A stretch of DNA of 14,454 nucleotides, from the IMG/VR virus record IMGVR_UViG_2778261009_000003, positions 1-14,454 of that record. One strand, given 5' to 3'. The notes beneath the pieces are model-generated. The model ran no database searches, was not told where the DNA came from, and worked only from the letters and a program-made list of their open reading frames with translations. This stretch comes from a virus. Taxonomy: Duplodnaviria > Heunggongvirae > Uroviricota > Caudoviricetes. A program made the translations under genes and the position numbers. The number at the start of each line of letters is the position of its first letter. The first letter of the stretch is position 1. Below, one piece after another: positions 1-14,454 of the stretch.

Positions 1-128
1 GCTGGAAAGGCTGGGCCATACTCCTCCGGCAGAAGCAGAAAAAGCTTATTATGCTTCCATCGGAAACGATGATCTGGCAGCCTGAGTTCACAGATAAAAC
101 ACTCTCCAGGAAACCCGGGGCGGTTCAG
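1..128. repeat. Left copy of a perfect 128-bp inverted repeat (partner 14327..14454)
   Basis: Checked base by base: the reverse complement of 1..128 equals 14327..14454. The match stops at position 129 (g, where the partner strand would give t). This copy lies inside the HAD reading frame. Confidence 0.95.
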
Positions 129-548
129 GTGAAGTCGCTACGTGAAGCGGTTCATGAAGTGAATGGAATATGGAAATTTGCCCTTACAGATACTGATACA
201 GCTAAATTACAAAATTTCAATCAAACCGTTGAAGAAGAGCTTGGGCTTACATGCGAATGGTCGTGGCATGACCAAGTAGATATAGCACAAACCGGAAACA
301 GCAAAGGTAAACGATTGGCACAATGGGTTGAGTCTCAGGGTTTATCAATGAACCAAGTTATTGCTTTTGGGGATAACCATAACGATCTTAGTATGCTAAA
401 AAATGCTGGTCTTGGCGTGGCTATGGGTAATGCCGTAGATGAAGTGAAAGAATGTGCTGATTTAGTGATAGGAACTAACATGGAATCAGGAATTGCTGAG
501 ATAGTTAACAGATATTTTGATCATGTACCTGCACAAAATGTTTTATGA
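3..548 (+). CDS. Cof-type HAD-IIB family hydrolase (sugar-phosphatase-like), 5'-partial, runs off the window start
   Basis: Frame 3 is open from position 3 with no stop; stop codon at 546-548. The C-terminal motif VIAFGDNHNDLSMLKNAGLGVAMGNA matches the HAD motif III/IV region of Cof/YbiV-like phosphatases as I remember them. About 41% GC in a hand-counted 100-nt sample. Confidence 0.75.
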   Translation, partial: WKGWAILLRQKQKKLIMLPSETMIWQPEFTDKTLSRKPGAVQVKSLREAVHEVNGIWKFALTDTDTAKLQNFNQTVEEELGLTCEWSWHDQVDIAQTGNSKGKRLAQWVESQGLSMNQVIAFGDNHNDLSMLKNAGLGVAMGNAVDEVKECADLVIGTNMESGIAEIVNRYFDHVPAQNVL

Positions 549-575
549 TTTTGAAACTACTAGGAGAGTTGACCA

Positions 576-785
576 ATGACAGATGAACAATTTGAAAATA
601 ACTATCCAAGAGATCAATATAGCTACGTACGTAAGAGCTTTAGAACCAAAGGGACAATGGGACAAACAGAAATTGAAGTCTTTGATATTGTCACAAAAGG
701 TACTGGTGAAGTTGTGCTCACAGCGACACGAACAGAACATACTAATCTGCGTGGTTTAAACACTACAGTTAACTGGGATTGGTAA
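576..785 (+). CDS. Small hypothetical protein (69 aa), probably host-encoded
   Basis: ATG at 576 preceded by AGGAG (562-566) with 9-nt spacing; followed by a hairpin at 800-827. No family recognised. Confidence 0.55.
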   Translation: MTDEQFENNYPRDQYSYVRKSFRTKGTMGQTEIEVFDIVTKGTGEVVLTATRTEHTNLRGLNTTVNWDW

Positions 786-793
786 TGATTAGC

Positions 794-830
794 AAAAATA
801 AAGCCCGCTCAATTTACTGCGGGCTTTGTA
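794..830. terminator. Rho-independent terminator-like hairpin, probably bidirectional
   Basis: Stem aaagcccgc (800-808) pairs with gcgggcttt (819-827) around a 10-nt loop; A-run upstream on plus gives a U-tract on the minus strand. Sits where composition shifts from host-like to AT-rich. Confidence 0.5.
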
Positions 831-859
831 GATCATAAGATTATCTGAGAACTCTTGAA

Positions 860-889
860 TTCGACAATCTATTCATCGGTGATTAAAAT
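860..889 (+). promoter_or_regulatory. Candidate sigma70-like promoter (TTCGAC, 18-nt spacer, TAAAAT) that would give a near-leaderless transcript for the 897 ORF
   Basis: Hexamers read by eye at 860-865 and 884-889. No Shine-Dalgarno precedes ATG 897. Weak evidence. Confidence 0.2.
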
Positions 890-896
890 CTCTTAT

Positions 897-1601
897 ATGA
901 AAAAACATCATTTTAAAAAATTAGTTAAACAAATTAAATTTTCTCATATAGCTTGTTTAGCAGTCGGAATACTGATCCCGATATATATAGATGTCTTAGG
1001 TTTTCATGAATTTAATAGTTCTACTGTATCTGCCATTATGGATACAGTATTGGCAAGCATTGCTACTTATACACTATATAAAGTCAAAAATTGGTACAAT
1101 GAAAAGACACATACGAAAGGATTCGAACAAGCAAATAATTTTATTGTTCATTTATCCGATGCTAAATTAAAGTCAGAAAAAGTATTTGAGCACATAATGA
1201 ATATGTATTGCTATTTAGGCACCAAAAATTTGGGAAAAACAGACCCACATTATGAAAAACTCAATAATGAAATTGAGACATTATGGTTAGATTTTAAAAC
1301 TCATTTATCTGTGCTTTCTTCACAAAAAGACATATTAAAAGTTTGGGAAATCGAAATAAGACCAGATCAACGAGATGGCATAACCCAGTACATTAGTACT
1401 TTATATAAATTTTCAGAGCTTAGCCAAATGATGATCTTTTCATATAAAGATGTTAATGGCATGGCTCGTAAAAAATCATATGAGTTCAATCAAATTAGCT
1501 TCAATCAATGCTATGCCTTAACACAGATTCTATCTACATCTTGGATGAACACCTGGAGGTCATTATTTGTAATTACTAAGTCAACCACCCACCATGATTA
1601 A
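897..1601 (+). CDS. Hypothetical membrane protein with two predicted N-terminal TM helices and a roughly 170-aa soluble domain
   Basis: Long open frame in very AT-rich DNA (about 26% GC in sample 901-1000), where chance ORFs of this length are unlikely. The ORF track starts at TTG 855; ATG 897 (MKKHHFKKL) is preferred. Hydrophobic segments IACLAVGILIPIYIDVLGF and VSAIMDTVLASIATYTLY. Start uncertain. Confidence 0.5.
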   Translation: MKKHHFKKLVKQIKFSHIACLAVGILIPIYIDVLGFHEFNSSTVSAIMDTVLASIATYTLYKVKNWYNEKTHTKGFEQANNFIVHLSDAKLKSEKVFEHIMNMYCYLGTKNLGKTDPHYEKLNNEIETLWLDFKTHLSVLSSQKDILKVWEIEIRPDQRDGITQYISTLYKFSELSQMMIFSYKDVNGMARKKSYEFNQISFNQCYALTQILSTSWMNTWRSLFVITKSTTHHD

Positions 1602-1871
1602 AAGTATCTGTAGTAGCTCACCTAGTGGAATTTGTATTAATACAATACCAAACGCATCAAGAACAGGAACAATTATCCAATTATATAAAATGATTAGGGA
1701 AAGTACAAAACCAAGGAAGTTTCTCCAGTGAAAGGTGTTTTGCTCAATTTCAATTTTATTTGTCTCAATCTGTCCATCAGTGTTAGTTTTATGTTCCTCT
1801 TTTTCAATTATTTTTGTCTTTGTAAAAAGACTCATTATCGTACTAATTAATACGGAGATTGCATTTATCAT
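1581..1871 (-). CDS. Small membrane protein (96 aa) with a hydrophilic middle and two C-terminal TM helices
   Basis: ATG at 1871 with AAGGA 8 nt upstream; begins 12 nt after the stop of the upstream minus-strand ORF. Its 3' end overlaps the 3' end of the convergent 897..1601 ORF by 21 nt. Confidence 0.5.
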   Translation of the reverse strand: MINAISVLISTIMSLFTKTKIIEKEEHKTNTDGQIETNKIEIEQNTFHWRNFLGFVLSLIILYNWIIVPVLDAFGIVLIQIPLGELLQILLIMVGG

Positions 1872-1882
1872 ATTTCATTTCC

Positions 1883-2203
1883 TTATTGTAACTGGCATAC
1901 GACTGACCAAACGCGATGACCTTTGTAGACTTGATTAAAACATGACAGTACTGCTACTGTCTTATTATCACCAAGACATACGGTATCGAGTACATCACCA
2001 TCATTAACATTCGGAATATTGTTTAGATTGAAACTGAATACAATCAAATTCCCTTTACTCTTATCTACCTTCTTTTTAATTAACTTGCTACCCGAAAACA
2101 CTTTGTCATATGGCAAAGTAACACTTACAGGTTTGACGTTTTGAAATAGGAATTCATCCAGTACGGTATGGTCATAACAGGGATATTGATCAAGTATATT
2201 CAT
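1883..2203 (-). CDS. Hypothetical protein (106 aa if started at the internal Met; track ORF starts at 2215)
   Basis: Internal ATG at 2201-2203 is preceded by GGAG at about 6-nt spacing and overlaps the stop of the upstream ORF (TAATG). No family recognised. Confidence 0.45.
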   Translation of the reverse strand: MNILDQYPCYDHTVLDEFLFQNVKPVSVTLPYDKVFSGSKLIKKKVDKSKGNLIVFSFNLNNIPNVNDGDVLDTVCLGDNKTVAVLSCFNQVYKGHRVWSVVCQLQ

Positions 2204-2796
2204 TATTTTCTCCATTTATATTCGAATGTACCACTCATAGTTTGAAGTTGTCGTAATACCATTTTTTCGGTTGTGTCATAAAAATCAAATATTGGTTTTC
2301 TTCCAACACTTCCATAATAACCAATAACACGTTCCTTACTCGTTTTCGTCTTCTTGGTAGTGTCGATTAGATATGTCTTTCCAGACGTCTTACTCTTCAC
2401 TTTTTTATATTTATCGTTCTTACGCTTTGATTTAAGTTGACTTATATTACCCTGTTTTGTCTTCTTGGCGTTTTGGTATGGGATCGCTTTATATTCCTTA
2501 TTCCCTACATAATCAGGGTCAATAATATGCTTTAAGTATCTCGCCTGATTTCCCAGTACTATAATCTGGTTTACACTCTCAAATTCATTAAGCCGTTTAA
2601 AATTAAAGTACATCGCTCTACCCGTATATGGAATTACACCACCATCTACTTCCTGGTTAATTTTATGCTGTATCTGTTGGGTAACATTACGCATACGATT
2701 ACTTAGTTCTTTTTTGAAGTGTTTACCGATCTTTGGGGAATTTTTATTAACAAATTTTTTCATATCATCTGGTGAATGACCATTCTTCCATTTCAT
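2203..2796 (-). CDS. Lysine-rich basic protein (197 aa), putative DNA-binding partner with a NUMOD3-like N-terminal motif
   Basis: ATG overlaps the upstream stop as ATGA; GAGAGG RBS 6 nt upstream. N-terminus KNGHSPDDMKKF resembles the NUMOD3 motif of GIY-YIG homing endonucleases (from memory). Lys-rich tract KSKRKNDKYKKVKSKTSGK. Confidence 0.5.
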   Translation of the reverse strand: MKWKNGHSPDDMKKFVNKNSPKIGKHFKKELSNRMRNVTQQIQHKINQEVDGGVIPYTGRAMYFNFKRLNEFESVNQIIVLGNQARYLKHIIDPDYVGNKEYKAIPYQNAKKTKQGNISQLKSKRKNDKYKKVKSKTSGKTYLIDTTKKTKTSKERVIGYYGSVGRKPIFDFYDTTEKMVLRQLQTMSGTFEYKWRK

Positions 2797-3221
2797 GATA
2801 ACCTCTCTAATAATTGTTGCAGTACTTTGAATGTTTCAGAACGATTTTTACCAAGCCGTACTTTACACATCACGGCAAGATTCAAATTATTTGATTGCTG
2901 TCCTAAGAATAGAATCAACGCCGCTTCTACCTGCTCGGCTTCATTCGTCGTACTGAAACACCATAGTATTTGTTTTTCATAGTTCAGACCTGAATCGACC
3001 ATTGCCTGCACTTTCTTTGAGGAAGAATAATAATTCTCCCAGTTGGATTCCTTTGTAGTTGGCTTCAGCTTCTTTACATCCCGAATACCTTTGAAGATTG
3101 ACTTTACACCAAAATAATATGAACCATCGTCAAAAGTGATCATATATACAAAAGCTGCATACCTCCCGTCATTTATATCTTCATAATCCCATGTCTCAGG
3201 ATCATGCATTGTCCATTTCAT
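2793..3221 (-). CDS. GIY-YIG-like nuclease domain protein (about 142 aa from ATG 3221; track ORF starts at TTG 3236)
   Basis: Motif FVYMITFDDGSYYFG fits the GIY-(10 aa)-YIG spacing; Arg 8 residues after, then NEAEQVEAAL and SNNLNLA resemble the I-TevI Glu and Asn regions (from memory, not aligned). About 31% GC. Confidence 0.5.
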   Translation of the reverse strand: MKWTMHDPETWDYEDINDGRYAAFVYMITFDDGSYYFGVKSIFKGIRDVKKLKPTTKESNWENYYSSSKKVQAMVDSGLNYEKQILWCFSTTNEAEQVEAALILFLGQQSNNLNLAVMCKVRLGKNRSETFKVLQQLLERLS

Positions 3222-3257
3222 ATAAATACCCCACAAACAATAATTTATGAGGTATTT

Positions 3258-3704
3258 ATGTGTTTAAGAGAAAAATTAAAAGTATATGAAGGTACGAAAG
3301 AATACCAAGCCCATATGGGTTATTATCGCAATGGTAAATTCTGGGTGTATAAATGTAGTGAGAACAAAGATACGATTGGATATGGACATCTACTAAAAGC
3401 CTCTGAATCGTTCTCTAACGGCATTAACGAGGATGAAGCAGATAAACTACTGGATAAAGATATTGGCATTGCCAAACGTGATTTATCTACCTTAAATTTG
3501 AAATTACCACAGGACTGGGAAGACTTCATGGTTATTATGATTTTTCAGTTAGGCTTAGGTGGTACTAAGAAGTTTAAAAAGATGATCATTGCATTACAAA
3601 ACAATAATTATACAGAAGCAATTAAACAGGCAAAGGATAGTTTATGGTATCGTCAGACACCGAATAGACTTGACAAAATGATTAAAGATTTAATTAACAA
3701 ATAA
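3258..3704 (+). CDS. Phage lysozyme / endolysin, GH24 T4-lysozyme-like
   Basis: TIGYGHLL and SLWYRQTPNR closely parallel T4 lysozyme TIGIGHLL and SRWYNQTPNR. GAGG RBS 6 nt before ATG 3258 (track ORF starts at 3204, rejected). No signal peptide or SAR-like N-terminus. Confidence 0.8.
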   Translation: MCLREKLKVYEGTKEYQAHMGYYRNGKFWVYKCSENKDTIGYGHLLKASESFSNGINEDEADKLLDKDIGIAKRDLSTLNLKLPQDWEDFMVIMIFQLGLGGTKKFKKMIIALQNNNYTEAIKQAKDSLWYRQTPNRLDKMIKDLINK

Positions 3705-3735
3705 AAAAGGGGCATTAAGCCCCTTTTTATTTTTC
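3703..3735. terminator. Bidirectional rho-independent terminator between convergent genes
   Basis: A-run, GGGGC stem, ATTAA loop, GCCCC stem, T-run; lies between the lysozyme stop (3702-3704) and the 88-aa gene stop (3727-3729). Confidence 0.65.
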
Positions 3736-3993
3736 AAGTATCACAAGAATACGTGCAATATCTACTTCAAGTCGTCTGATTGATTCATCAACTGACTTAA
3801 GAGTAATCTTCATAGCTTCATGCTCACTTCGTAATGTAGTAACAGATTGTTCTACAAGTGCAAGTCGTGTTTCTACTGAGGCAAGACGTGCTTCTATTTC
3901 TGCATCATCAGTCTTATTATCACGAATGATAGTCCAGATTAATGCTACAAAAGTTAGAAAAACTGCAATCCCTGCAATTACCAATTCTACCAT
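3727..3993 (-). CDS. Small membrane-anchored coiled-coil protein (88 aa), possible lysis-associated (holin- or spanin-like) protein
   Basis: One N-terminal TM segment (LVIAGIAVFLTFVALIWTII) then a heptad-like charged helix. AAGGGA RBS upstream. No embedded lipoprotein ORF found in other frames, so not a classic Rz/Rz1 pair. Function is a guess. Confidence 0.45.
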   Translation of the reverse strand: MVELVIAGIAVFLTFVALIWTIIRDNKTDDAEIEARLASVETRLALVEQSVTTLRSEHEAMKITLKSVDESIRRLEVDIARILVILEK

Positions 3994-4055
3994 TCCCTTT
4001 AGTTCCCTTTTTAATTATTATAGGTAGTTTTTAGGCTACCCATATTTATTTAGTT

Positions 4056-7000
4056 TTAGTTACTAACGGGGTTCTCACCACTACGGAATAAGAAGAGATC
4101 AAGTCTGTCACCTGGTAGATTATTGTTTCCCTGATGTTCGCCTATATCCAGTCCACATGAACCACTACGGCCATCTGAAGCCATTACATATAGATAATTC
4201 ATCTTACCCCTACCTACAGCAGGAATTTGAATATTATCAATTTTATATGAAACTGGCGTATCTTCACCACCGGAACCTGCATCATAACCCCATAATAGAC
4301 GGTTTGCTATTCCATCCCCACCAACAAACACTTGAAAATAGTTCCACTTCCAGCATGTAAAATAAAAACTCATATTACTATTCAGAGTCCTTGCAAAGTC
4401 CTCCCCTTTAATACGCAATCCTACATATAGTCGACCTGGTTCTGGTCTATAGTTTTCTGGGAATTCTACCCCAGGAGGTGCCCATACGTTCCCCTGTCGA
4501 TTAACTCCAGTACTTTGAGGTCTGCACTGATCACCAACAATACGTGATGCATTAAGAGTACCAAGAATTGTACAGTCCTGGTTAATAGTAACATTATTCA
4601 TGGTTCCACTGGTTGCCTGAATATTACCCCGTACTGATACGTCCTGGAAGCTTGCCTTACCATTCTTATTGATCATCCAGCCTGTACTACCATTCCAGTT
4701 TGTAGATTGAATTTGCTGGGATATTTTTGCTGAGTCGATAACCCCGTTAACTATGTGTCCATTAAGGATTGAAGCATTGGCTATGCGAGCTGAGTCGATT
4801 GCTGCTATCTGAATTTTCGCACGCGAAACGGCAAGGTCATTTATCTGCCCTGTGTTTATACTCGCGTCTCCAATGACCGCACTATTGATATAAGTCTTAC
4901 CATTCTGAACTACAAACGGATATACCTTATCAGTCTGTTTAGCACTGTCAGTAGAAATAATACTGAAACGATCTGCCATTACCGTAAATGCTGAGTTTTT
5001 CCCGTCATTAGCAAGTGATACACCTGACACGTTGCCGTTATTCGTCACCTGAACCTGCCAGCGTGAACCAAGGTCATCAACAATATGTTTCTCAATAATG
5101 CCTGTGGCAACATCTGAATTCAGTAATTCATCTACAACATCATCATTTAGCTTTGAGTACGGAACTTTAGTATTCTGGTTAAAACCAATAGTTGGCGACC
5201 ATACTAATTCATCCTGTCCCATTACATCATATGCTGCAAGACGTCCGAACCACGATCCATCCTCTATCCCAAATGAAGCTGAGAAGCGGTTAGAAGAACT
5301 GAAATAGTGAACATCCGAACTAAAACCCTCATCCTTAGCACACTGGAACACTACACCAGAATAGTCTGGTACGTTTGATTCATCCCATTCTAAGAACACA
5401 TTATCATAGCCATTACGCAAACGTACACCAAGTAATTGGGGGTGCTGTGGGTTACTTACTTCAATCTGTACTTCTTCTGAATAAATTCCAGTACCGTGAC
5501 CGTGGGCAATAATACCAATTACACGATATCTGTTAAGTCCATCAGATTGATTCATTGCAAAGGTATATATCCAGTTAAAGTCCGTTGTAAAGTACGACTT
5601 AATATATGTACGATAACGGTCATACACACGAATTTCATAATATTTGAAAAAATCAGAGAATCGTTTTCCATTTACTGGCAAAGTACTTTGTTCATCCCAT
5701 CTGAATATAAAATCTTGTGAATAAGTCTGGTTCAATCCCATATTATCGTTAGTCATATCAAGATTAGTAATCTTTGGTAGGGCAAAAATCACCTGTGGAG
5801 TTTGATTATAAATTGCAACTAACTCAGATGAATAACCGAGAGTGTTATACGCCTCAATACCAAAATCATATTTAACACCGTGGATTAGATTCAGTATCTG
5901 AAACTCTGTGGTGTACTGTCCTACGTTACCAATCGAGATCCATGTATTCGAATCACTGCGTTTATATCTAATCTTATAACCCCGTACGCTTGAATCCTGG
6001 CTTAAATCCCATGTCATAAGCACGGCATTACCGTTAACGGTTGCACCAAGTTTCTGCACCTGCAAGTTTGATGGAGGTTCTACGTATGTCGCGTTTGGTA
6101 GATTTGTGATCCCGTCCTGTGGGAATCGTCCATGGTCTTTCCCCTGATATATGCCGTCCGCATAGGCTATAGCGGTAATCTGTACGACACCAGTCTTATC
6201 TACGGTCATCGGTACAGTACGTTGTATTACACGGAACTTATTATTAACAAATCCGGCTTCTTTGAAACTGAGTGTAAAAACATCGTAGACTGTGAGATCG
6301 GTAACGTATGTGTTAAAAGTTATACTATTAAGAACATACTTAGATTTTAATAGTTCGGTATTAGCCATTTTAGCAAGTTGTTTTTTGTCCTGAATCCATT
6401 TTAGATTAAGGTCTTTTTTAATGATTAAACCATCCCGTACCACTGTTTCATTTGTAAGCGTATCACTTGGATAACGAATAATATCTTCTGAGTAATCACC
6501 GCCTGGGTTTGTATAGGTCACATCGAATACGTTCGCATAATCCGTATTAGAACCAGTTGTGATATTCACAGTACCGAGAATGTTTTTTTCATCAAAATGA
6601 TATAGTGGGACATCGGCAGTATCTACGGTGAGATACATAATACCATTCGATTCATATATTACACCACCGAATGTAGACAAGATGCTTTCAAGGTTTTCTT
6701 TATATGACTTATCATAGGCAATAGCACCATTTGAATATAGTTCATTATTCTTACAGTACATTGCACAATTACGAAATGATGCAATATCAATATCATTAGG
6801 ATCAGTGTTGAAACCAAATTCATTATTTGTGATAAAGTCATATAACTGACTCGGTGGATTACTGGAGGGTTTACGAATGTTATCAGTAAGGTCATAAATT
6901 AGACGTCCTTTCATCTCCAATGAAAGTGCATAGTTTTGATTCACTAAAATACCATCAGTCAGACTACCATTAGTCTTACGGATAACCGAACAAACCTGTA

Positions 7001-7613
7001 CTAATCCATCACCACGCATTTCATCAGTCCAGCGAGATCCGCCATATTGCCGGGCAAGTGTCATAGAACCACCATAAGACGGCTTTCCAAAACGAATTTC
7101 GAGCTGGAGGAAGTTACGATACTTCTCACGCATAAGGGATGTAGAAACAATACCCTCACTGGTTATTTCGGCATCATCTAGTAAGATTGGACTGTTATCA
7201 AAGTATACCTGTTTAATTACGGCACCAGATTGTGCACCTGGAGCACGTCCGATCTCCCCGATACTAATAGCATGCACTGTGCATAGTTGGTTACTTTGTC
7301 CCTTATAGACGTTCTGCCATACGACAATGGAACCTACCTTAACAAATGATTCTTCGGTCAGGCTTCTATTAGTACCGCCATATACAATCGGTATCCCAGT
7401 ACTGGGTGAAGTACTTCGAGAGTTAACCGTTCCAGTACTGGGATAGTTTACCCCCTGATCTCCAACACGCATCATCTGGGAGGATGCAACATAGGATAAT
7501 GCTGCTACACCAACACCAATAGCGATAGATGCTGCAAGACCCACTGCTGCGTAAGCTGCGGCGGCGGCTGATGCACCTGCTATTACTGCTGTTAATACGG
7601 CTGCTACTGCCAT
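4056..7613 (-). CDS. Host specificity protein J-like central tail fibre / tail tip protein (1185 aa) with an N-terminal gpI-like hydrophobic extension
   Basis: C-terminal SGTMNNVTINQDCTILGTLNASRIVGD parallels lambda J SGTLSNVTIAENCTINGTLRAEKIVGD (from memory). FN3-like segment around KIRYKRSDSNTWISIG. GGAGGG RBS 7 nt upstream. About 46% GC. Confidence 0.85.
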   Translation of the reverse strand: MAVAAVLTAVIAGASAAAAAYAAVGLAASIAIGVGVAALSYVASSQMMRVGDQGVNYPSTGTVNSRSTSPSTGIPIVYGGTNRSLTEESFVKVGSIVVWQNVYKGQSNQLCTVHAISIGEIGRAPGAQSGAVIKQVYFDNSPILLDDAEITSEGIVSTSLMREKYRNFLQLEIRFGKPSYGGSMTLARQYGGSRWTDEMRGDGLVQVCSVIRKTNGSLTDGILVNQNYALSLEMKGRLIYDLTDNIRKPSSNPPSQLYDFITNNEFGFNTDPNDIDIASFRNCAMYCKNNELYSNGAIAYDKSYKENLESILSTFGGVIYESNGIMYLTVDTADVPLYHFDEKNILGTVNITTGSNTDYANVFDVTYTNPGGDYSEDIIRYPSDTLTNETVVRDGLIIKKDLNLKWIQDKKQLAKMANTELLKSKYVLNSITFNTYVTDLTVYDVFTLSFKEAGFVNNKFRVIQRTVPMTVDKTGVVQITAIAYADGIYQGKDHGRFPQDGITNLPNATYVEPPSNLQVQKLGATVNGNAVLMTWDLSQDSSVRGYKIRYKRSDSNTWISIGNVGQYTTEFQILNLIHGVKYDFGIEAYNTLGYSSELVAIYNQTPQVIFALPKITNLDMTNDNMGLNQTYSQDFIFRWDEQSTLPVNGKRFSDFFKYYEIRVYDRYRTYIKSYFTTDFNWIYTFAMNQSDGLNRYRVIGIIAHGHGTGIYSEEVQIEVSNPQHPQLLGVRLRNGYDNVFLEWDESNVPDYSGVVFQCAKDEGFSSDVHYFSSSNRFSASFGIEDGSWFGRLAAYDVMGQDELVWSPTIGFNQNTKVPYSKLNDDVVDELLNSDVATGIIEKHIVDDLGSRWQVQVTNNGNVSGVSLANDGKNSAFTVMADRFSIISTDSAKQTDKVYPFVVQNGKTYINSAVIGDASINTGQINDLAVSRAKIQIAAIDSARIANASILNGHIVNGVIDSAKISQQIQSTNWNGSTGWMINKNGKASFQDVSVRGNIQATSGTMNNVTINQDCTILGTLNASRIVGDQCRPQSTGVNRQGNVWAPPGVEFPENYRPEPGRLYVGLRIKGEDFARTLNSNMSFYFTCWKWNYFQVFVGGDGIANRLLWGYDAGSGGEDTPVSYKIDNIQIPAVGRGKMNYLYVMASDGRSGSCGLDIGEHQGNNNLPGDRLDLFLFRSGENPVSN

Positions 7614-7614
7614 G

Positions 7615-8004
7615 TTATTTCCCTCCGAATCTATAAATTTTATAATTGTTTTCTATTGGTTCATATTTCATTACTGTATAGACACCATCGATTAAAATGA
7701 TTACTTTACCTCTCCAGTACACAGTAGATTGGGAGCCAGTAATTAGGATATCCCCATCAAATGGTTCTACTTGTTTTATACCCAGATCATTACATAGGGC
7801 ATTTAGTGATTTATATGAACAATGTTCTTTTGCGTACTTTCGACCGCCAGTAGGTGACGTATATTTCTGATAGATTTCGTCCCTGTAATTTGTACCAAGA
7901 TGCATATCAATAACAGTCAGAGACATGATATGACAATCATTTTCACCGTATACAATTGGCTGACCGATTAGAGTACTAAGATATTCTGTAATAAATCCAT
8001 TCAT
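7615..8004 (-). CDS. Minor tail protein (129 aa), K-like position, partial NlpC/P60-like signature
   Basis: GQPIVYGENDC and GDILI resemble the NlpC/P60 G-x-P-Y-x-W-G-x-x-D-C-S-G and GDLVFF motifs, but no His follows. Start overlaps the upstream stop (TAATG). Confidence 0.45.
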   Translation of the reverse strand: MNGFITEYLSTLIGQPIVYGENDCHIMSLTVIDMHLGTNYRDEIYQKYTSPTGGRKYAKEHCSYKSLNALCNDLGIKQVEPFDGDILITGSQSTVYWRGKVIILIDGVYTVMKYEPIENNYKIYRFGGK

Positions 8005-8648
8005 TATTTTTTACTCGCTTGCCAAAACTGCTCTGAACTATTTAGTATTCCGATTAGATCAAAGAACTTATCACCCTTATGGGTTGATTGGTGAATTGAT
8101 GTACTTGATAGTAGACGTTGTGTCTGGTCTAATTTCTTCCATATGGAATTGAGATTAACAGTGGTTTCATTCTGTGTGTTAGTTCCATCTACAGAAAAAT
8201 CACTGCTAAAATAATCTATATATCCACTAAAAATACGATAACGGTAAAGAAGTGCACCTGTTGCAGGGTTAACGATCCCCATCCAGATATTAACTTTGGC
8301 ATCTTTCCACAATCCTCTTAAAGCAAGGGAAAGATAATCCTGGCTTACGTTACTAATCTTAAACGTAGTACCGGTATTATTGATCTGATTCTTTTCTACA
8401 TAGTTCGCAAAGGATGAATCAATTAGATCTGGAATTGGTTTATATACAATGCCATTGATATTCTGTTCTACTACTGCATCAGTAAGGTATAGATTACTTC
8501 CTGTAGGAGGTAATAGATCAATCAGTTTTACCATGATTCCACACTGGTATAATTCCCTTTCTGTAAGAACTGACTTATTATCACCCCGCATTAGATTCCA
8601 GTACTTTACTAATTCTGGGTTACTTAGTACATTGTTTGGAATTGCCAT
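8004..8648 (-). CDS. Minor tail protein (214 aa), L-like position
   Basis: Translationally coupled within the tail operon; AAGGGG RBS upstream. Assigned by position only; lacks the Cys cluster of lambda L. Confidence 0.45.
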   Translation of the reverse strand: MAIPNNVLSNPELVKYWNLMRGDNKSVLTERELYQCGIMVKLIDLLPPTGSNLYLTDAVVEQNINGIVYKPIPDLIDSSFANYVEKNQINNTGTTFKISNVSQDYLSLALRGLWKDAKVNIWMGIVNPATGALLYRYRIFSGYIDYFSSDFSVDGTNTQNETTVNLNSIWKKLDQTQRLLSSTSIHQSTHKGDKFFDLIGILNSSEQFWQASKK

Positions 8649-8649
8649 A

Positions 8650-9204
8650 TTATCCCCTTATATTCTCTGTTGCCGTAATTGTCATTTCAATAATATTCGT
8701 ACTTGGTAAGTCATATGTAGAGTTAGCAGGTGTAAGAATAAAAGAACCCATTAGATTATCGTATTTTACTGTTTCCCCTATCTGGATATTTCGGATCAGT
8801 CCTGGGTAGATATTCAGAGTCGTTCCACTACGGGCAATAACACGATAGAGTTTTTTGTGTCCTGAGAATTGAATTAAATCACCTGGGGAAAGGTTATTAG
8901 TATTGGTCTGAATAGATGTAGCCCCGGCTGTACGGGCTGCTGTTACCTGTACACCTGTCGCCTGATTACCTGAATAATCACCCCACCAACCAAGAGACAT
9001 ATCAAAAGGTCTGCCATTGGAATAGAGTGCAAGAAAGTTTGTTAAATCGGTTCTGTATTTTTTACTTGTTGTAACCTTAAAACTTATGCTGAAGTACTGT
9101 GTTCCGACAATACGGGTAATTACCTCACCAGACCATGTTTTGTTTTGGTATTGGGGGATATTATCAGAAAGTACAAAATCACTTATTAGAGAGTTATTAA
9201 ACAT
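8650..9204 (-). CDS. Minor tail protein (184 aa), M-like / distal tail position directly after the tape measure
   Basis: Position and AAGGA RBS. No diagnostic motif. Confidence 0.45.
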   Translation of the reverse strand: MFNNSLISDFVLSDNIPQYQNKTWSGEVITRIVGTQYFSISFKVTTSKKYRTDLTNFLALYSNGRPFDMSLGWWGDYSGNQATGVQVTAARTAGATSIQTNTNNLSPGDLIQFSGHKKLYRVIARSGTTLNIYPGLIRNIQIGETVKYDNLMGSFILTPANSTYDLPSTNIIEMTITATENIRG

Positions 9205-9219
9205 ATATTTTCCTTATAA

Positions 9220-9237
9220 AGCCCACATGAATGTGGG
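9220..9237 (-). other. Intergenic hairpin between tape-measure stop and next gene start
   Basis: gcccaca / tgaa / tgtgggc, 7-bp perfect stem; followed on the minus strand by a short U-run and then the RBS. Confidence 0.3.
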
Positions 9238-9251
9238 CATACTGTATTTAC

Positions 9252-11513
9252 TTAGACGTTCCTCTGTTGGCTTTTACGTACTGCCTGGGTGATAGTATCG
9301 GCGTGTTTATCACACATACTCTGGAATTTTGAATCTGTGAGTTCTCCGGCACCCTGAATAATTAAAGGGGCATCAATTTTAATATCACCACCTTTATCAC
9401 TCCCCTTATTATTCAAGTACTGTGTTAAGTCCTGGTTCAGAGATTTACCTACAACACGTTCACCTTTTTCAAGATTATATGTACCAGTCTTCGGTAGTGA
9501 GTCCCAACCATCATGTGCCTGACCTTCAATCTTTGTACCCTTAATCGTACTGACAATATTGGCACCTTCGGCTGCAACCTTAATACCCGCAGCGATGCCT
9601 GTAGGCCAGCCAAGCTTCATAGCCTCAGAAATACCCTGCTGAATATTGATAATAGACTGGGCAACTGCGATCCCTTTGCTCATTGCAAATGCAGCTTTTG
9701 CCATAGCATTACTTTCACCAAATACACCTGCAAGAGTAGTACCGAGATCCTGAGCACCCGTTGCATACATAGAAAGTGTCTTTTGCTGGGCATCAATATT
9801 AGCCTGACTCATTTTGTCTGTAGTAGATTGTTGAATTGCTACCATGCGATCTTGGTAATCCTGATAACTTAATAACTTCTGTTCATACAGACTTTGATTC
9901 AGTGCTAATTCGGCCTGTCCTTCTGTTGCTAATGTATCGAGCGTGTTCTGATCGGCACTCATATTTAATGGATCTTGATTAAGTCCCATACGTTCGTTTT
10001 GACCTGCCAGTACTGAATTAAGGTCTTTTCCTGACATAGAACCACCAATTGCCGAAATATTCTGGGCAAGTTTAAGTGGATCACTTTCAGTGAGCATTGA
10101 ATTAACCATTTCTTTATACAGGCGTTTACGTGAATCAGTCTGCTTTCTTAATAGTTCAGTCTTTTCAGCTTCAGTTTTACCAAGAGTATCTGCACTTATT
10201 TTAATGCGTTGTTCTATTTCATCCTGGGTCTTATTAAATTGTTGTAGCTGTAGGGCAGCACCATTACCTGCAATACCATTCATAGTCTGTTCCAGTACTT
10301 TGGCAGCCTGGATACGATCCTTTGCGGCCTTATCACTGGCTTTTTTCGCTTCTTCCCCTGCTTTACCATCATCGAAGTTAGAACGCTCTTTTGTCGTTCC
10401 TGTATATGCCTTTGTAGTTGGTTTATAGTCTTCCTGTGAATATTCACGGGCAAAGGCAGCAAGACCACCAATACCTGGTCCAAGTGGTGAAAAAACTGCA
10501 TCGGCTGCTGTCTGTACGTGTTTACGTCCTTTTGCTATTTGCTCGGGTGTAAACTCGGGTAATTCAAGGCCAATCTTTGATCCTAAATTACGGATCATGT
10601 CATAGAATTTAACGACCTGATCGTATAACGACTGTATGATCGTGTTTTTTGAATCCCAGTTAAAGAATGAATTAATAAACTCAACTGCTTTTGTTTTGAG
10701 GTTGTCAAACCATTGATATATTTCCTTACAGGCTTTTACGAGTCCATTAAAAATATCAATGAGGGGTGTAACAATTTCAAATGCAAGAGTTTTCAGTCCG
10801 TTACCAAGACCTGAAGTATTCTGACTTAACAGATCAAATGTTTTTGCCTGTTCATTAGTCATTGCTACGTTCTGGGCTGCAAGAGAGTTATTAAATTCAA
10901 TCTCACTATTAAAAGAGTTGAATGTAGGTATTAGTTTTGCAGCATCACCACCGAGAGCATTAATCATGTTTGTAATTTCGGCAAGATTTGCACCATTCTT
11001 TTTCATCTCAAAAAAGACTTTTGACAATGCCTGTAAACCACCATCAGCCTGTTTTAATGTTGGTATTAGGCTCTTTACATCTACGCCGAATGTTTTCAAG
11101 TCACCGCCAACGCCAGAACCGTCCGCAGACGCAATACCAAGTTGATCCATCACTGCTTCGTTAATCGAACCAACTTCTTCCATAGATAATCCTATGGTTT
11201 TGAATGCCCCTGACCACTGCTGGAGTTGCTCGGCACTTAGTCCGGTTGTGCGTGTCAATGCGTTGATGTCGTTTGCAAGTCCAATTGTATATGTGGTCAG
11301 TGCTGTAATAGCTGTAATTGCCATTGTTGCCGCATTACCAACACCACCAAGACCAGTTGCCATTGAACTTAGGCCACCACTAATACCACCAAATACACTA
11401 CCAGCACGATCACCAAAGTCGGCAAGTCCATTGCCAGCACTTTTTAAAGATTTTTGTAACCCAGATTCATCACCTGTGATTTCAAAAATCATCTGTTGTT
11501 TATTCCCTGCCAT
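9252..11513 (-). CDS. Tail tape measure protein (753 aa)
   Basis: Large Ala/Gly/Gln-rich ORF with low-complexity helical stretches, immediately downstream of the G/GT chaperone pair; its ATG lies 1 nt after the T-frame stop. Confidence 0.85.
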   Translation of the reverse strand: MAGNKQQMIFEITGDESGLQKSLKSAGNGLADFGDRAGSVFGGISGGLSSMATGLGGVGNAATMAITAITALTTYTIGLANDINALTRTTGLSAEQLQQWSGAFKTIGLSMEEVGSINEAVMDQLGIASADGSGVGGDLKTFGVDVKSLIPTLKQADGGLQALSKVFFEMKKNGANLAEITNMINALGGDAAKLIPTFNSFNSEIEFNNSLAAQNVAMTNEQAKTFDLLSQNTSGLGNGLKTLAFEIVTPLIDIFNGLVKACKEIYQWFDNLKTKAVEFINSFFNWDSKNTIIQSLYDQVVKFYDMIRNLGSKIGLELPEFTPEQIAKGRKHVQTAADAVFSPLGPGIGGLAAFAREYSQEDYKPTTKAYTGTTKERSNFDDGKAGEEAKKASDKAAKDRIQAAKVLEQTMNGIAGNGAALQLQQFNKTQDEIEQRIKISADTLGKTEAEKTELLRKQTDSRKRLYKEMVNSMLTESDPLKLAQNISAIGGSMSGKDLNSVLAGQNERMGLNQDPLNMSADQNTLDTLATEGQAELALNQSLYEQKLLSYQDYQDRMVAIQQSTTDKMSQANIDAQQKTLSMYATGAQDLGTTLAGVFGESNAMAKAAFAMSKGIAVAQSIINIQQGISEAMKLGWPTGIAAGIKVAAEGANIVSTIKGTKIEGQAHDGWDSLPKTGTYNLEKGERVVGKSLNQDLTQYLNNKGSDKGGDIKIDAPLIIQGAGELTDSKFQSMCDKHADTITQAVRKSQQRNV

Positions 11514-11514
11514 A

Positions 11515-11835
11515 TTATTTTCTTCCCATCCAGTTTAACATGTTTGCTCTCTGTTCTTCGGCGATCCGTTTCTCTCTCTCTTCGGCTTGTTCTTTAATGG
11601 TCTTATTGTTGATGATATTAAGAGAGTCCAATTCTGTGATACTGAATTTCTTTAAGTCTTCCTTCTTAATATTCCCAGTACTGAGCCATATAGCCTGGAG
11701 TATTTCGGTATGTCTTACCTGTTCAATTCGGGAAGAATTTGGTTCTACAAAAGTGTCATATACAAATAGATAGATAAAAAGCGAAAAGGGCATGGTGCAG
11801 AGATCTTCCACACCACACCCTTTTGTCATCAGCAT
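11515..11835 (-). CDS. Tail assembly chaperone T segment, probably expressed as a G-T fusion via -1 frameshift
   Basis: This ORF is in the -1 frame relative to G. Its frame is open upstream to a TGA three codons before the G stop, so it overlaps the slippery site. Confidence 0.6.
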   Translation of the reverse strand: MLMTKGCGVEDLCTMPFSLFIYLFVYDTFVEPNSSRIEQVRHTEILQAIWLSTGNIKKEDLKKFSITELDSLNIINNKTIKEQAEEREKRIAEEQRANMLNWMGRK

Positions 11836-11867
11836 TTTTAGAGAAAGTTTAAGAAACGGATCGCCTC

Positions 11868-12158
11868 TTACTTTTTTTCAATTTCTTCAATATTCATAGC
11901 TTCGGTAAAAATACGCGTGATTTCGGTATTAAGTTTGATTTGATAAACCATGTCAATTTCGCTTTCTACCTGTTCTGGTGATTTAAAAAGTTGTTTGCCA
12001 TCGACATCAACTACACAGTAATGAATTGTAGTGTACGGGTCACTACATTCACTATACTTAGAAATAGCTGGAAGACGAATATAAACAGTAAACCCCGGAG
12101 CAAGTTCAAAGGCATGTTTTTTGACACCAATTGCTGTCATTAGATTAGATAGATCCAT
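11868..12158 (-). CDS. Tail assembly chaperone G-like (96 aa)
   Basis: Small acidic protein between tube and tape measure; ends ...EIEKK* with slippery heptamer A-AAA-AAG directly before the stop. Confidence 0.65.
   Translation of the reverse strand: MDLSNLMTAIGVKKHAFELAPGFTVYIRLPAISKYSECSDPYTTIHYCVVDVDGKQLFKSPEQVESEIDMVYQIKLNTEITRIFTEAMNIEEIEKK
11871..11877 (-). other. Programmed -1 ribosomal frameshift slippery heptamer A_AAA_AAG (G/GT)
   Basis: Minus-strand aaaaaag (plus-strand ctttttt at 11871-11877) in the zero-frame register gaA AAA AAG TAA. Same heptamer as the E. coli dnaX shift site. Confidence 0.6.
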
Positions 12159-12190
12159 GTGTATTTTTTCCTTATTATGATTATTTTATA

Positions 12191-12667
12191 TTATGGTTTT
12201 GCTGCGATTTCACCAACTGCTACAGGTTGTCCCGTAATTGTCATGACGAATTCACGTGTCGCGACAGAATCAAAATCCCCACCGACAACATCAGAACTGA
12301 TATAGCCATTAACTACAGAGTAATAACCCGCACCATCGGTATCAGCGATGTTTTCGTAATAGGTTACTTTTACCTGCATAAGCGTCTGTTTTTGAGCTGC
12401 GGTAACTAACATCTCCTGTCCTACTGCCCCTGGTTTCCAGTTCACAGATAGGGTTAGATCGGGTACAGAACGAGAACCTAATAGCTTCTGTGCGTACTGC
12501 TTACCAAATGTATTTACTGAAATGATTGTACTCTCGGCACCTGCTGCTGATGGGAAAGCTGCAACTTCTTCAATTACTGTATAAGTGGTTGCCTGACCAC
12601 CACCTGCTGGTGCTTCTGCAATTTCTACTACAACGTTATTCGCTGCGAAAATTCGATTAAAAGCCAT
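12191..12667 (-). CDS. Major tail (tube) protein (158 aa)
   Basis: Size and position directly upstream of G/GT and tape measure; AAGGA RBS 8 nt upstream. No motif-level confirmation. Confidence 0.65.
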   Translation of the reverse strand: MAFNRIFAANNVVVEIAEAPAGGGQATTYTVIEEVAAFPSAAGAESTIISVNTFGKQYAQKLLGSRSVPDLTLSVNWKPGAVGQEMLVTAAQKQTLMQVKVTYYENIADTDGAGYYSVVNGYISSDVVGGDFDSVATREFVMTITGQPVAVGEIAAKP

Positions 12668-12688
12668 TTTAATTTCCTTATTTAATTA

Positions 12689-12707
12689 GGGTAACGTCCT
12701 GTTACCC
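12689..12707 (-). other. Intergenic hairpin upstream of the tube gene
   Basis: gggtaac / gtcct / gttaccc, 7-bp perfect stem, between the 533-aa ORF stop (12718-12720) and tube start (12667). Confidence 0.3.
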
Positions 12708-12717
12708 GTTTCCTTTT

Positions 12718-14319
12718 TTATTTATGAAGATTGTAGTACTGCACATATAGCCCCAATCCGCGTAAAAGTTCACCCGAATAGAAACTAAAGAACATACTAT
12801 TGTTTTCGGCAGTTGTTTCATTACCTGTTCTGATTGACGCAGGCCATGTACCATTCATTACATGATTTGGTGAAATAACTGCATAGTTAAGTTGTATTTC
12901 ATCAAATAGTAATTGAATTAGCTCATGGTCTGGATATCCGGCGATAGCCATCATGCATGCCCCTGCTAACCATAGACCTGACATATGAGGGGTAAAGCCA
13001 TCATATTCTACAGAACCATTATCCCTAAAATAGGTAGGAGCTTTACCGACATTATTTTTCATGAACCATTTTAGATAGTTCATCCAGTTCTGACAGAAAG
13101 ATATTAGTTTAGGAGGTATTACAGTACTGTCTTGTCGTGACCATAATTCATGTACTGCATCACACCCACCAAAGAAAGCCCTTGGTTCGTATCCACTCCA
13201 TGCTTCGGCGTACCAGTGCTGCATTATGAATTGATCTGGTTTACCATCAGGAGCATATGCTAAAGCGTCCTGTCTGTTCCATACGAAAGCCTGTGCACAT
13301 GGTCCTGGTAAAGATGGTTTAAATTTATTTTTAAACCATGCCTGAGAATCATATAGAAAATTGATACTGTTATTTAAGCGAGTATGATCTATTTCTGTTC
13401 CTTTAAAGCACCAGATCGCCGGTAGTTGATAACCAGGATACGGTAGACCACGCCAGCCAGAATATAACTGGGCATAGGGATCGGTAATGTTAGAGAACGG
13501 AATTAAACCGGGAGTATACGCAAGACTATCTAACATATAATCTTTAATAGTACAGTCACCTAATCGTGCTGTGTATCCATTACCAGTTGTGTCGTTAAAC
13601 GTAAGCAGTACTGTGACCGAATAATCACCTGTCCCAGCATCTGTATACATCGCAGGCAAATCATTAATACAATACCAGTCAATCTTTCCATTCACACCAT
13701 TTACTGGATCTGTATCAAGTAGCAGTGTGAAAGATTCACGGTTCGTTAGTACTGGGCTTGCTGGAATTGGATCTGGTTGAATCCATTCTCCTGGGTTATC
13801 TGGATCTTCAATTTCGGGGTGATCTGGTTGATAACCGTTTAGTTTGAAGTCAGCAATAGTAAAAGTCTTTGTAACCCATTCACCATTTGTTGCAGGGAGC
13901 ATAGCCCACCAACGCCATTTATTATCATCACTTATACGAAAGTTAAAATCATCATCATATGAACGATAGGTAAAAGACTGAATATTGGCAGTCTCTGGTG
14001 TGAATATCCAAAACCCCACCACCTGTCCCCCGTCACCATCCATTGTTGTAGACACGACGTTATCGTAATACTTCCCAAGTACTCCACTCTGATATTCAAA
14101 GTTTGTTACCGTGTTATCTCCATAATCGGCAATCATACGTAGATCGGCAGTCATATAATTAGAGCCATCTGGTTTCATCACACGTGTGAAACGATTCATA
14201 GGAATGTCCATTGTAGTAATAGATCCATCTGGATTAGTCATTGGTAAGCCACACCGATAATCAATTGCACCCTCTTCTGTCTTTGTTTTATTCACTGTGA
14301 CTTCAGCAGATACTGACAT
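12718..14319 (-). CDS. Large hypothetical protein (533 aa), Trp/Tyr/Asn/Asp-rich, enzyme-like; possibly 5'-truncated at the inverted-repeat junction
   Basis: 1.6-kb open frame. The only start is ATG 14319, 7 nt inside the junction, with no Shine-Dalgarno; the frame is open upstream into the repeat until a stop. Not recognisable as capsid, portal, terminase or sheath. Confidence 0.55.
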   Translation of the reverse strand: MSVSAEVTVNKTKTEEGAIDYRCGLPMTNPDGSITTMDIPMNRFTRVMKPDGSNYMTADLRMIADYGDNTVTNFEYQSGVLGKYYDNVVSTTMDGDGGQVVGFWIFTPETANIQSFTYRSYDDDFNFRISDDNKWRWWAMLPATNGEWVTKTFTIADFKLNGYQPDHPEIEDPDNPGEWIQPDPIPASPVLTNRESFTLLLDTDPVNGVNGKIDWYCINDLPAMYTDAGTGDYSVTVLLTFNDTTGNGYTARLGDCTIKDYMLDSLAYTPGLIPFSNITDPYAQLYSGWRGLPYPGYQLPAIWCFKGTEIDHTRLNNSINFLYDSQAWFKNKFKPSLPGPCAQAFVWNRQDALAYAPDGKPDQFIMQHWYAEAWSGYEPRAFFGGCDAVHELWSRQDSTVIPPKLISFCQNWMNYLKWFMKNNVGKAPTYFRDNGSVEYDGFTPHMSGLWLAGACMMAIAGYPDHELIQLLFDEIQLNYAVISPNHVMNGTWPASIRTGNETTAENNSMFFSFYSGELLRGLGLYVQYYNLHK

Positions 14320-14326
14320 TGCAGTA

Positions 14327-14454
14327 CTGAACCGCCCCGGGTTTCCTGGAGAGTGTTTTATCTGTGAACTCAGGCTGCCAGATCATCGTTTCCGATGGAA
14401 GCATAATAAGCTTTTTCTGCTTCTGCCGGAGGAGTATGGCCCAGCCTTTCCAGC
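14327..14454. repeat. Right copy of the perfect 128-bp inverted repeat (partner 1..128)
   Basis: Exact reverse complement of 1..128; an inverted duplicate of HAD-gene coding sequence fused to the 5' side of the 533-aa ORF. Confidence 0.95.

Follow-up and report, generated by a model that had tools for sequence, protein, structure and literature searches.

The DNA analysed here, called the window in the following, is a 14,454-nucleotide stretch of a tailed phage (Caudoviricetes; IMG/VR record IMGVR_UViG_2778261009_000003, positions 1 to 14,454). It covers the right-hand part, with the tail and lysis end, of a siphovirus-type E. coli/Enterobacter prophage of ~34 kb. We focused on four consecutive minus-strand genes, g1 to g4. 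A preliminary description, made from the sequence without database searches, had read them as one translationally coupled operon and had proposed that they could be a homing endonuclease with passenger genes or an undescribed defence, exclusion or anti-defence module. The genes are as follows.

2793..3221, minus strand: g1, 142 amino acids (aa), a stand-alone GIY-YIG nuclease with a Seg-like catalytic domain
2203..2796, minus strand: g2, 197 aa, basic (pI 10.1), from a rare family; candidate virion assembly protein for tail completion or DNA-end binding
1883..2203, minus strand: g3, 106 aa, a small beta-barrel protein, always encoded directly 3' of g2; candidate ring protein of the neck or tail
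1581..1871, minus strand: g4, 96 aa, with three hydrophobic segments; probable holin

The four open reading frames (ORFs) of the preliminary description are present in the sequence at these coordinates, which are identical to the RefSeq coding-sequence calls in E. coli FDN-9. The FDN-9 chromosome is 99.97% identical to window positions 126-14329. At the g1/g2 junction (TATCATGAAATGG) the TGA of g1 overlaps the ATG of g2 (ATGA), and at the g2/g3 junction (AAAATAATGAAT) the last A of the g2 TAA is the first base of the g3 ATG (TAATG, an overlap of 1 nt). Both overlaps had been described before and are read in the sequence, whereas the gap between g3 and g4 (TAA + GGAAATGAAAT + ATG) is 11 nt and not the 12 nt given earlier. 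Internal ribosome-binding sites had been claimed for three genes, and purine runs resembling Shine-Dalgarno sequences do precede g2 (GAGAGG), g3 (TGGAGA), and g4 (AAGGAA). Only a weak GGGG precedes g1.

We gathered 60 non-redundant loci in IMG/VR, of which 54 had enough flanking sequence for gene order to be counted. The order g1-g2-g3-g4, with overlaps or gaps of a few bases, is kept in 52 of the 54, at tail-tip protein identities from 99% down to 33%. The co-occurrence in other genomes that the preliminary description had proposed to check is thus found. Since homologues at the protein level stand in the same order with similarly tight spacing, g1 to g4 are real genes and not chance ORFs. 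The region 3' of g4, in contrast, varies from locus to locus, indicating that the block belongs to the phage core and that an accessory "moron" site adjoins it.

We measured, for each locus, the identity of every protein to its counterpart in the window and compared the values between genes. The identities of g2 and g3 correlate with those of the Dit-like, hub-like, peptidase-like, and tip proteins of the tail (r = 0.96-0.99), while g1, the neighbouring lysozyme, and g4 give r = -0.16 to 0.42 with the tail proteins. At a tip-protein identity of about 72%, seen in one clade, g2 is about 60-66% and g3 55-65% identical; in the clades with a tip protein at 33-43%, the values are 33-39% for g2 and 21-29% for g3. 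g1 and g4 instead fall into allele classes (about 54% or about 41% for g1; about 70% or about 40-46% for g4), and all four combinations of these classes are seen. The operon is a mosaic of three evolutionary units, not the single functional unit that had been implied. That g2 and g3 stay with the tail module despite freely recombining flanks is expected of proteins fitting cognate virion parts and is not expected of a self-contained defence cassette.

The nuclease-like character that had been ascribed to g1 is borne out by a match to the Pfam family PF19835 (SegE_GIY-YIG) over residues 9-104 (E = 1.1e-16; 61.6 bits against a cut-off of 25). The protein also matches PHROG homing-endonuclease families, and its closest phage relatives in tblastn, at 30-40% identity, are the N-terminal catalytic domains of Seg-like homing endonuclease genes (HEGs) of T4-like phages. 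The catalytic residues of the GIY-YIG domain are intact. Tyr26 (in FVY), Tyr36-x-Gly38, Lys40, Glu99, and Asn114 are invariant in 13 diverse relatives at 34-54% identity. The canonical GIY-YIG arginine has no unambiguous placement. No DNA-binding or targeting domain was found in g1, and the ~35 residues past the catalytic core gave no domain match in Pfam, PHROG or NCBIfam.

The position of g1 is filled differently in a sister clade, which consists of Escherichia phage DCP80 (left 26 kb) and loci L085-L088. Here g2 is about 25% identical to the window protein and has a g3 homologue directly after it (HMM E = 1e-7 to 1e-27), with a short g4-like gene beside the pair. A full-length endonuclease VII (EndoVII; Endonuclease_7 plus the T4 dimerisation domain) lies between an o88-like gene and the g4-like, g2, and g3 genes, o88 being a small ORF upstream of the block. 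T4 endonuclease VII clears DNA branches before packaging. The presence of EndoVII at the equivalent position next to g2-g3 suggests that this slot needs a structure-specific nuclease. At the nuclease position of L085 nothing recognisable was found, though g2-g3 are present. In L086-L088 (about 2100-12000) the order is peptidase, tip protein, o88-like gene, EndoVII, g4-like gene, g2, g3, tail chaperones, and tape measure, so that the lysis, nuclease, and g2-g3 block stands inside a rearranged tail gene cluster. The DCP80 record itself (L023; PQ671644.1) bears the classification of a T4-like Gaprivervirus. In its first ~26 kb it has genes for a terminase of the lambda type together with a portal, a capsid, and a siphovirus tail module akin to those of the present prophage family, and the record could be an assembly chimaera or else an unusual recombinant.

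The protein g2 is basic and lysine-rich, as had been described, with 44 Lys and Arg in 197 aa. Neither g2 nor g3 has a signal peptide or a transmembrane (TM) segment, and sequence and profile searches with the two window proteins gave no match in Pfam, PHROGs, NCBIfam, PADLOC or the PDB. The g2 family is very small (35 representatives at 50% identity among 1.84 billion proteins), its named members coming from E. coli, Enterobacter, Klebsiella, Cronobacter, Pantoea, and relatives. Although the window protein gives no match, 7 of 21 aligned family members match phrog_1924, annotated "minor tail protein", with a best E of 3e-21. In hhalign the g2 family aligned with gp49 of phage vB_DshS-R4C (R4C) at a probability of 95.6% over 72 columns. 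This PHROG includes R4C gp49, RcCronus gp44, S-CBS1 gp43, and proteins of the Ralstonia YO phages. g2 was seen only in phages with the same structural module, namely Cronusvirus, S-CBS1, Ralstonia YO, and the DCP80-like clade. The common module consists of a lambda-type terminase, an adaptor gene between terL and the portal gene, a fused protease-capsid gene, and a baseplate resembling that of gene transfer agents (GTAs). We found no experimental basis for the "minor tail" label of PHROG 1924, and in the literature no proteomic evidence for R4C gp49 or RcCronus gp44.

The structural model of R4C comprises 12 proteins, and gp49 is not among them (PMC10276861). According to the paper on phage 80alpha, tail completion proteins are monomers inside the neck whose positive surface caps the DNA end, they bind the N-termini of the tape-measure protein, and they are unseen in the symmetrised maps of lambda, JBD30, and DT57C. 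Such monomers, being missed in symmetrised maps, would explain the absence of gp49 from the R4C model. The sequence-level tests of this identity for g2 were negative. The 21 family members had no match to the tail-completion families of Pfam (PF04883, PF06763), hhalign against lambda gpZ gave a probability of 0.2%, and profile searches of the PDB with the g2 family returned nothing. The AlphaFold2 model of g2, built with 23 close homologues, has a predicted local distance difference test (pLDDT) score of 40 and was rejected. Such fold evidence as there is, although weak, favours a tail completion protein, which is the best available hypothesis for g2.

For g3, we obtained a confident beta-barrel model, which has matches to phage tube and stopper proteins. 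A search of BFVD by Foldseek with g3 gave nothing below E = 1e-2. A function as a PilZ domain binding cyclic di-GMP was considered and rejected; the RxxxR and (D/N)xSxxG motifs are absent. When the g2 and g3 profiles were compared by hhalign with the lambda FI, FII, Z, U, V, and G proteins and with the 95-aa and 98-aa proteins and TerS of the prophage itself, no probability rose above about 1%. The same held for the R4C adaptor, stopper, terminator, 007, 008, 019, 048, and TerS, gp49 being the sole exception among the R4C proteins. Profile hidden Markov models (HMMs) of the R4C and RcCronus neck proteins found nothing in the prophage.

Some apparent variants of g2 were also inspected. The most distant relatives (P0108, P0116, P0118, P0121, P0123, and P0126) had no loci in the viral, genome, and metagenome contigs scanned. 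A replacement of terS by g2 in S-CBS1 was rejected, since a terS fragment spans the origin of the record. In Enterobacter roggenkampii and relatives (L092-L095), a gene at 10001-10609 annotated "terminase small subunit" encodes 202 aa, in which the TerS N-terminus is joined to the C-terminal ~60 residues of a g2 homologue. The gene sits in a prophage relic of ~7 kb that has lost all structural genes, and this relic is widespread (64 blocks of the collection; 24 contigs read). We rejected this TerS::g2 fusion (P0087) as a functional clue, as it is a deletion relic.

The small membrane protein of the preliminary description, g4, has hydrophobic segments at about 1-17, 51-70, and 73-95. It matches the Pfam family GTA_holin_3TM (PF11351) at E = 1.3e-3, with 19.6 bits against a gathering score of 24.8. 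Of six full-length g4 variants tested, four gave E = 3e-4 to 1.3e-2 against this family, the best at 21.8 bits. In PHROG, g4 matches phrog_2024 (E = 2.7e-7) and the holin family phrog_3427 (E = 0.009). A lysozyme gene is found within the same module as g4 in all clades. With this neighbour, three hydrophobic segments, and sub-threshold matches to holins, g4 is a probable holin. The features immediately upstream of g1 are listed below.

3258..3704, plus strand: lysozyme gene, a GH24-type endolysin (Pfam Phage_lysozyme, E = 1e-9; PHROG tail lysozyme and endolysin families)
3704..3728, both strands: bidirectional hairpin resembling an intrinsic terminator, with a 10-bp stem, 5 GC pairs, and T runs on each strand
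3727..3993, minus strand: o88, 88 aa, with an N-terminal TM segment (hydrophobic segment 1-25) and a coiled coil

The lysozyme, named "glycoside hydrolase family protein" in RefSeq, is encoded divergently from g1, with 36 bp between their starts in the window. The gene is opposite in strand to its neighbours in most relatives. In L033 and L073-L078 it is co-directional with g1-g4, and there the whole set forms a single row of genes. Together with the divergent lysozyme gene, the strong terminator-like hairpin, which stands between the lysozyme and o88 genes, indicates that g1-g4 form their own transcription unit in this phage. Seven terminator-like sites were found against 1.5 expected, and a promoter scan gave nothing above chance. 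The position of o88, upstream of the lysozyme or nuclease gene, is kept in all clades. In Pfam and PHROG this protein has only weak matches, to coiled coils and Rz-like spanins, and it is a candidate conserved partner of the module, either spanin-like or a lysis accessory.

The minus-strand order of the surrounding genes is tape measure, Dit-like, hub-like, peptidase-like, a 1185-aa tip protein, o88, lysozyme (on the opposite strand), g1-g4, o248/o69, and, past the variable region, a phage-borne ybhA-like phosphatase gene. The tail module, from the tape measure through the tip protein, resembles those of RcGTA and R4C. The tube protein is encoded at window 12191-12667, and the 98-aa protein of the prophage is gpFII-like. 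Taken together, we give about an even chance to the reading that g1-g4 lie at the distal end of the late region, which serves morphogenesis and lysis, in a temperate siphovirus whose tail is GTA/R4C-like, and that they encode a nuclease, a tail or neck pair, and a holin. g1 would be an active, domesticated, stand-alone GIY-YIG endonuclease in a "late nuclease slot", its most likely job being to debranch or resolve the replicated phage DNA by structure-specific cleavage and so ready it for packaging. g2 and g3 would be a co-inherited pair working with the tail or neck. In this pair, g2 would most likely be of the tail-completion type, a basic monomer in the neck lumen that touches both the DNA end and the tape-measure protein. 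g3 would be a tube- or stopper-like small beta-barrel forming or decorating a neck or tail ring. It may possibly be the terminator, for which the prophage has no other identified candidate. Finally, the putative holin g4 and the adjacent lysozyme, perhaps with o88, would lyse the cell.

Several points weigh against this late-region reading. We infer the biochemical roles of all four proteins, and that of g1 comes solely from its position and its replacement by EndoVII. The best structural matches of g3 are PilZ domains, not phage proteins, and g3 has no similarity to the R4C terminator. The co-divergence correlation mainly reflects how two or three clades differ from one another. The scores of g4 and its variants always stay under the Pfam gathering score.

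Different arrangements of the same proteins were weighed. One is a DNA-maturation or packaging module, in which g1 and g2, perhaps with g3, would act on phage DNA ends or cos as accessories to the lambda-type terminase, comparable with the HNH proteins that assist HK97-type terminases or with paired catalytic and targeting subunits as in Slx1-Slx4. A g2-like gene does lie directly upstream of terS-terL in four distant lineages, and the enterobacterial g2 is always within two genes downstream of a nuclease gene, be it GIY-YIG or EndoVII. A nuclease without its own DNA-binding domain next to a very basic protein would also suit such a division of labour, and the ATGA overlap of g1 and g2 suggests coupled synthesis. 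However, g1 and g2 do not co-evolve (r = 0.35), with different g1 alleles turning up alongside one constant type of g2. No nuclease is recognisable with the g2-g3 pair of L085, and none adjoins g2 in Cronus-type phages; g2 tracks the tail proteins, and lambda-type TerL carries its own cos nuclease. We regard a packaging module as unlikely. We are quite doubtful, too, that the conserved g2-g3 pair and an exchangeable nuclease (GIY-YIG or EndoVII) make up an undescribed phage device for handling DNA ends, in which the structure-specific nuclease would trim or debranch the genome end and g2, basic and of the tail-completion kind, would then capture this end in the neck with its beta-barrel partner g3. 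If such a device existed, g2 would also supply the tail completion protein for which the R4C/Cronusvirus/GTA-like tail lineage has no identified candidate. The whole block could instead be a lysis cassette, with g4 as holin, the lysozyme as endolysin, and g2 and g3 (plus o88) as lysis regulators or spanin substitutes at the outer membrane. The pair is always found among o88, lysozyme, and g4-like genes, even in rearranged modules, and g2 is highly cationic. No ORF for a lipobox-bearing o-spanin was detectable in the region, which leaves the outer-membrane step unaccounted for. This very unlikely explanation conflicts with the lack of signal peptides and TM segments in g2 and g3, with the co-divergence of both with tail genes and not with the lysozyme or holin, and with g2 not being consistently beside lysis genes in Cronusvirus, S-CBS1, and the Ralstonia phages.

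The explanation offered in the preliminary description, a homing endonuclease with hitch-hiking genes or a prophage module for defence, superinfection exclusion or anti-defence, draws on the descent of g1 from Seg-type HEG catalytic domains and on its match to the generic PADLOC model "HEase" (E = 3e-6). The turnover of HEGs would also be expected to leave unrelated nucleases in the slot of different clades and shuffled g1 alleles. g2 and g3 evolve fast (21-38% identity between clades), and the genes lie close to the end of the prophage, a usual site of morons. A homing unit is contradicted by the presence of g1 in 52 of the 54 loci with adequate flanks, which is not sporadic, by its invariant catalytic residues, and by the lack of a DNA-binding domain. 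In addition, EndoVII with the T4 dimerisation domain is of the resolvase type and not the HEG type. As for defence, PADLOC returned nothing specific for g1 beyond the generic homing-endonuclease match and a weak match to PDC-M01A, and PADLOC-DB held no component model matching g2, g3 or g4 at E <= 1. The block is conserved in the late region while the neighbouring g4-ybhA stretch varies, and g4 with the lysozyme resembles lysis genes. The four genes do not co-evolve as a system; g2-g3 follow the tail, and g1 and g4 are shuffled independently. We found no evidence for defence or active homing and hold this explanation to be highly improbable. What stands of the earlier interpretation is the nuclease, the basic g2, the membrane protein g4, and their co-occurrence; the homing unit with passengers and the defence, exclusion or anti-defence cassette are not supported.

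The flanks of the block gave some further observations. The variable stretch between g4 and the ybhA-like gene (window 576-1601, with o69 and o248, and equivalents in L002-L083) carries ORFs of 227-429 aa on either strand among the relatives; o248 is a TM protein without a family match. This stretch is likely a moron or accessory site and the better place to look for exclusion or defence genes. The FDN-9 prophage (NZ_CP158140.1, about 3,576-3,611 kb) sits inside the host ybhA gene, inserted by a 604-aa serine recombinase, and the prophage carries a full-length ybhA-like pyridoxal phosphatase beside the junction (window 51-548; L020 19204-20423; L021 9772-12236). The phage gene apparently replaces the host ybhA disrupted by the insertion. 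Both ends of the window (1-125 and 14330-14454) are the same terminus of an IS3-family insertion sequence (IS) in inverted orientation. One IS copy breaks the phage ybhA-like gene and the other breaks the gene of a 952-aa tail protein that is intact in FDN-9; it is therefore probable that the source strain has a defective prophage, or else that IS copies delimit the window as a contig. The interval between the genes for the capsid and the tail tube (L020 32593-37133; partly window 12718-14319) encodes this 952-aa "tail protein" (phrog_2871) and also a 560-aa fibre-like protein whose N-terminus resembles a major tail protein and whose C-terminus resembles tail fibres. Genes of this kind are unusual in that place.

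If g1-g4 are indeed the end of the late region, the locus represents ordinary phage biology and is not to be pursued as a defence candidate. This reading also provides a first functional hypothesis for two uncharacterised families, that of g2 (PHROG 1924, R4C gp49, RcCronus gp44) and that of the orphan g3, and it suggests a possible location for the genes of those neck components that are unassigned in the R4C/GTA-like siphovirus lineage.

Among known nucleases, g1 shares most with the Seg-type GIY-YIG HEGs (PF19835). It matches their catalytic domain above the gathering score and keeps the Tyr, Tyr-x-Gly, Glu, and Asn residues, but is just 142 aa long without a C-terminal DNA-binding domain, and it is fixed in nearly all relatives within a temperate siphovirus late operon. 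If the late-region reading is right, g1 would exemplify how a Seg-type GIY-YIG domain, after loss of its targeting domain, became a fixed late gene replaceable by endonuclease VII. T4 endonuclease VII (gp49) is a Holliday-junction and branch resolvase for packaging, and a homologue of it fills the equivalent slot in the DCP80-like clade. Its fold and sequence are unrelated to g1, so that the equivalence is positional only. T4 endonuclease II (DenA) is likewise a phage-encoded GIY-YIG domain on its own. DenA is a stand-alone nuclease of ~136 aa that degrades host DNA early in infection by a virulent phage; a PDB search gave no sequence match between g1 and DenA. For g4, the comparison is with the RcGTA-type three-TM holins (PF11351). 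The alignments of g4 and its variants cover the C-terminal two-thirds of this model, and g4 has the three hydrophobic segments and the neighbouring lysozyme gene, whereas all scores fall below the gathering threshold. The PHROG 1924 phages (RcCronus, R4C, and S-CBS1) have the g2 homologue with the same terminase, adaptor, portal, capsid, and baseplate module. They differ in that this gene is the last before cos or terS-terL, with no g3 and no adjacent nuclease found. The tail completion proteins with which g2 is compared are 80alpha gp51, lambda gpZ, HK97 gp10, and SPP1 gp16.1. The gene order of lambda, Z-U-(V)-G-T-H, has a likeness in L086-L088, where g2-g3 directly precede the tail chaperone and tape-measure genes.

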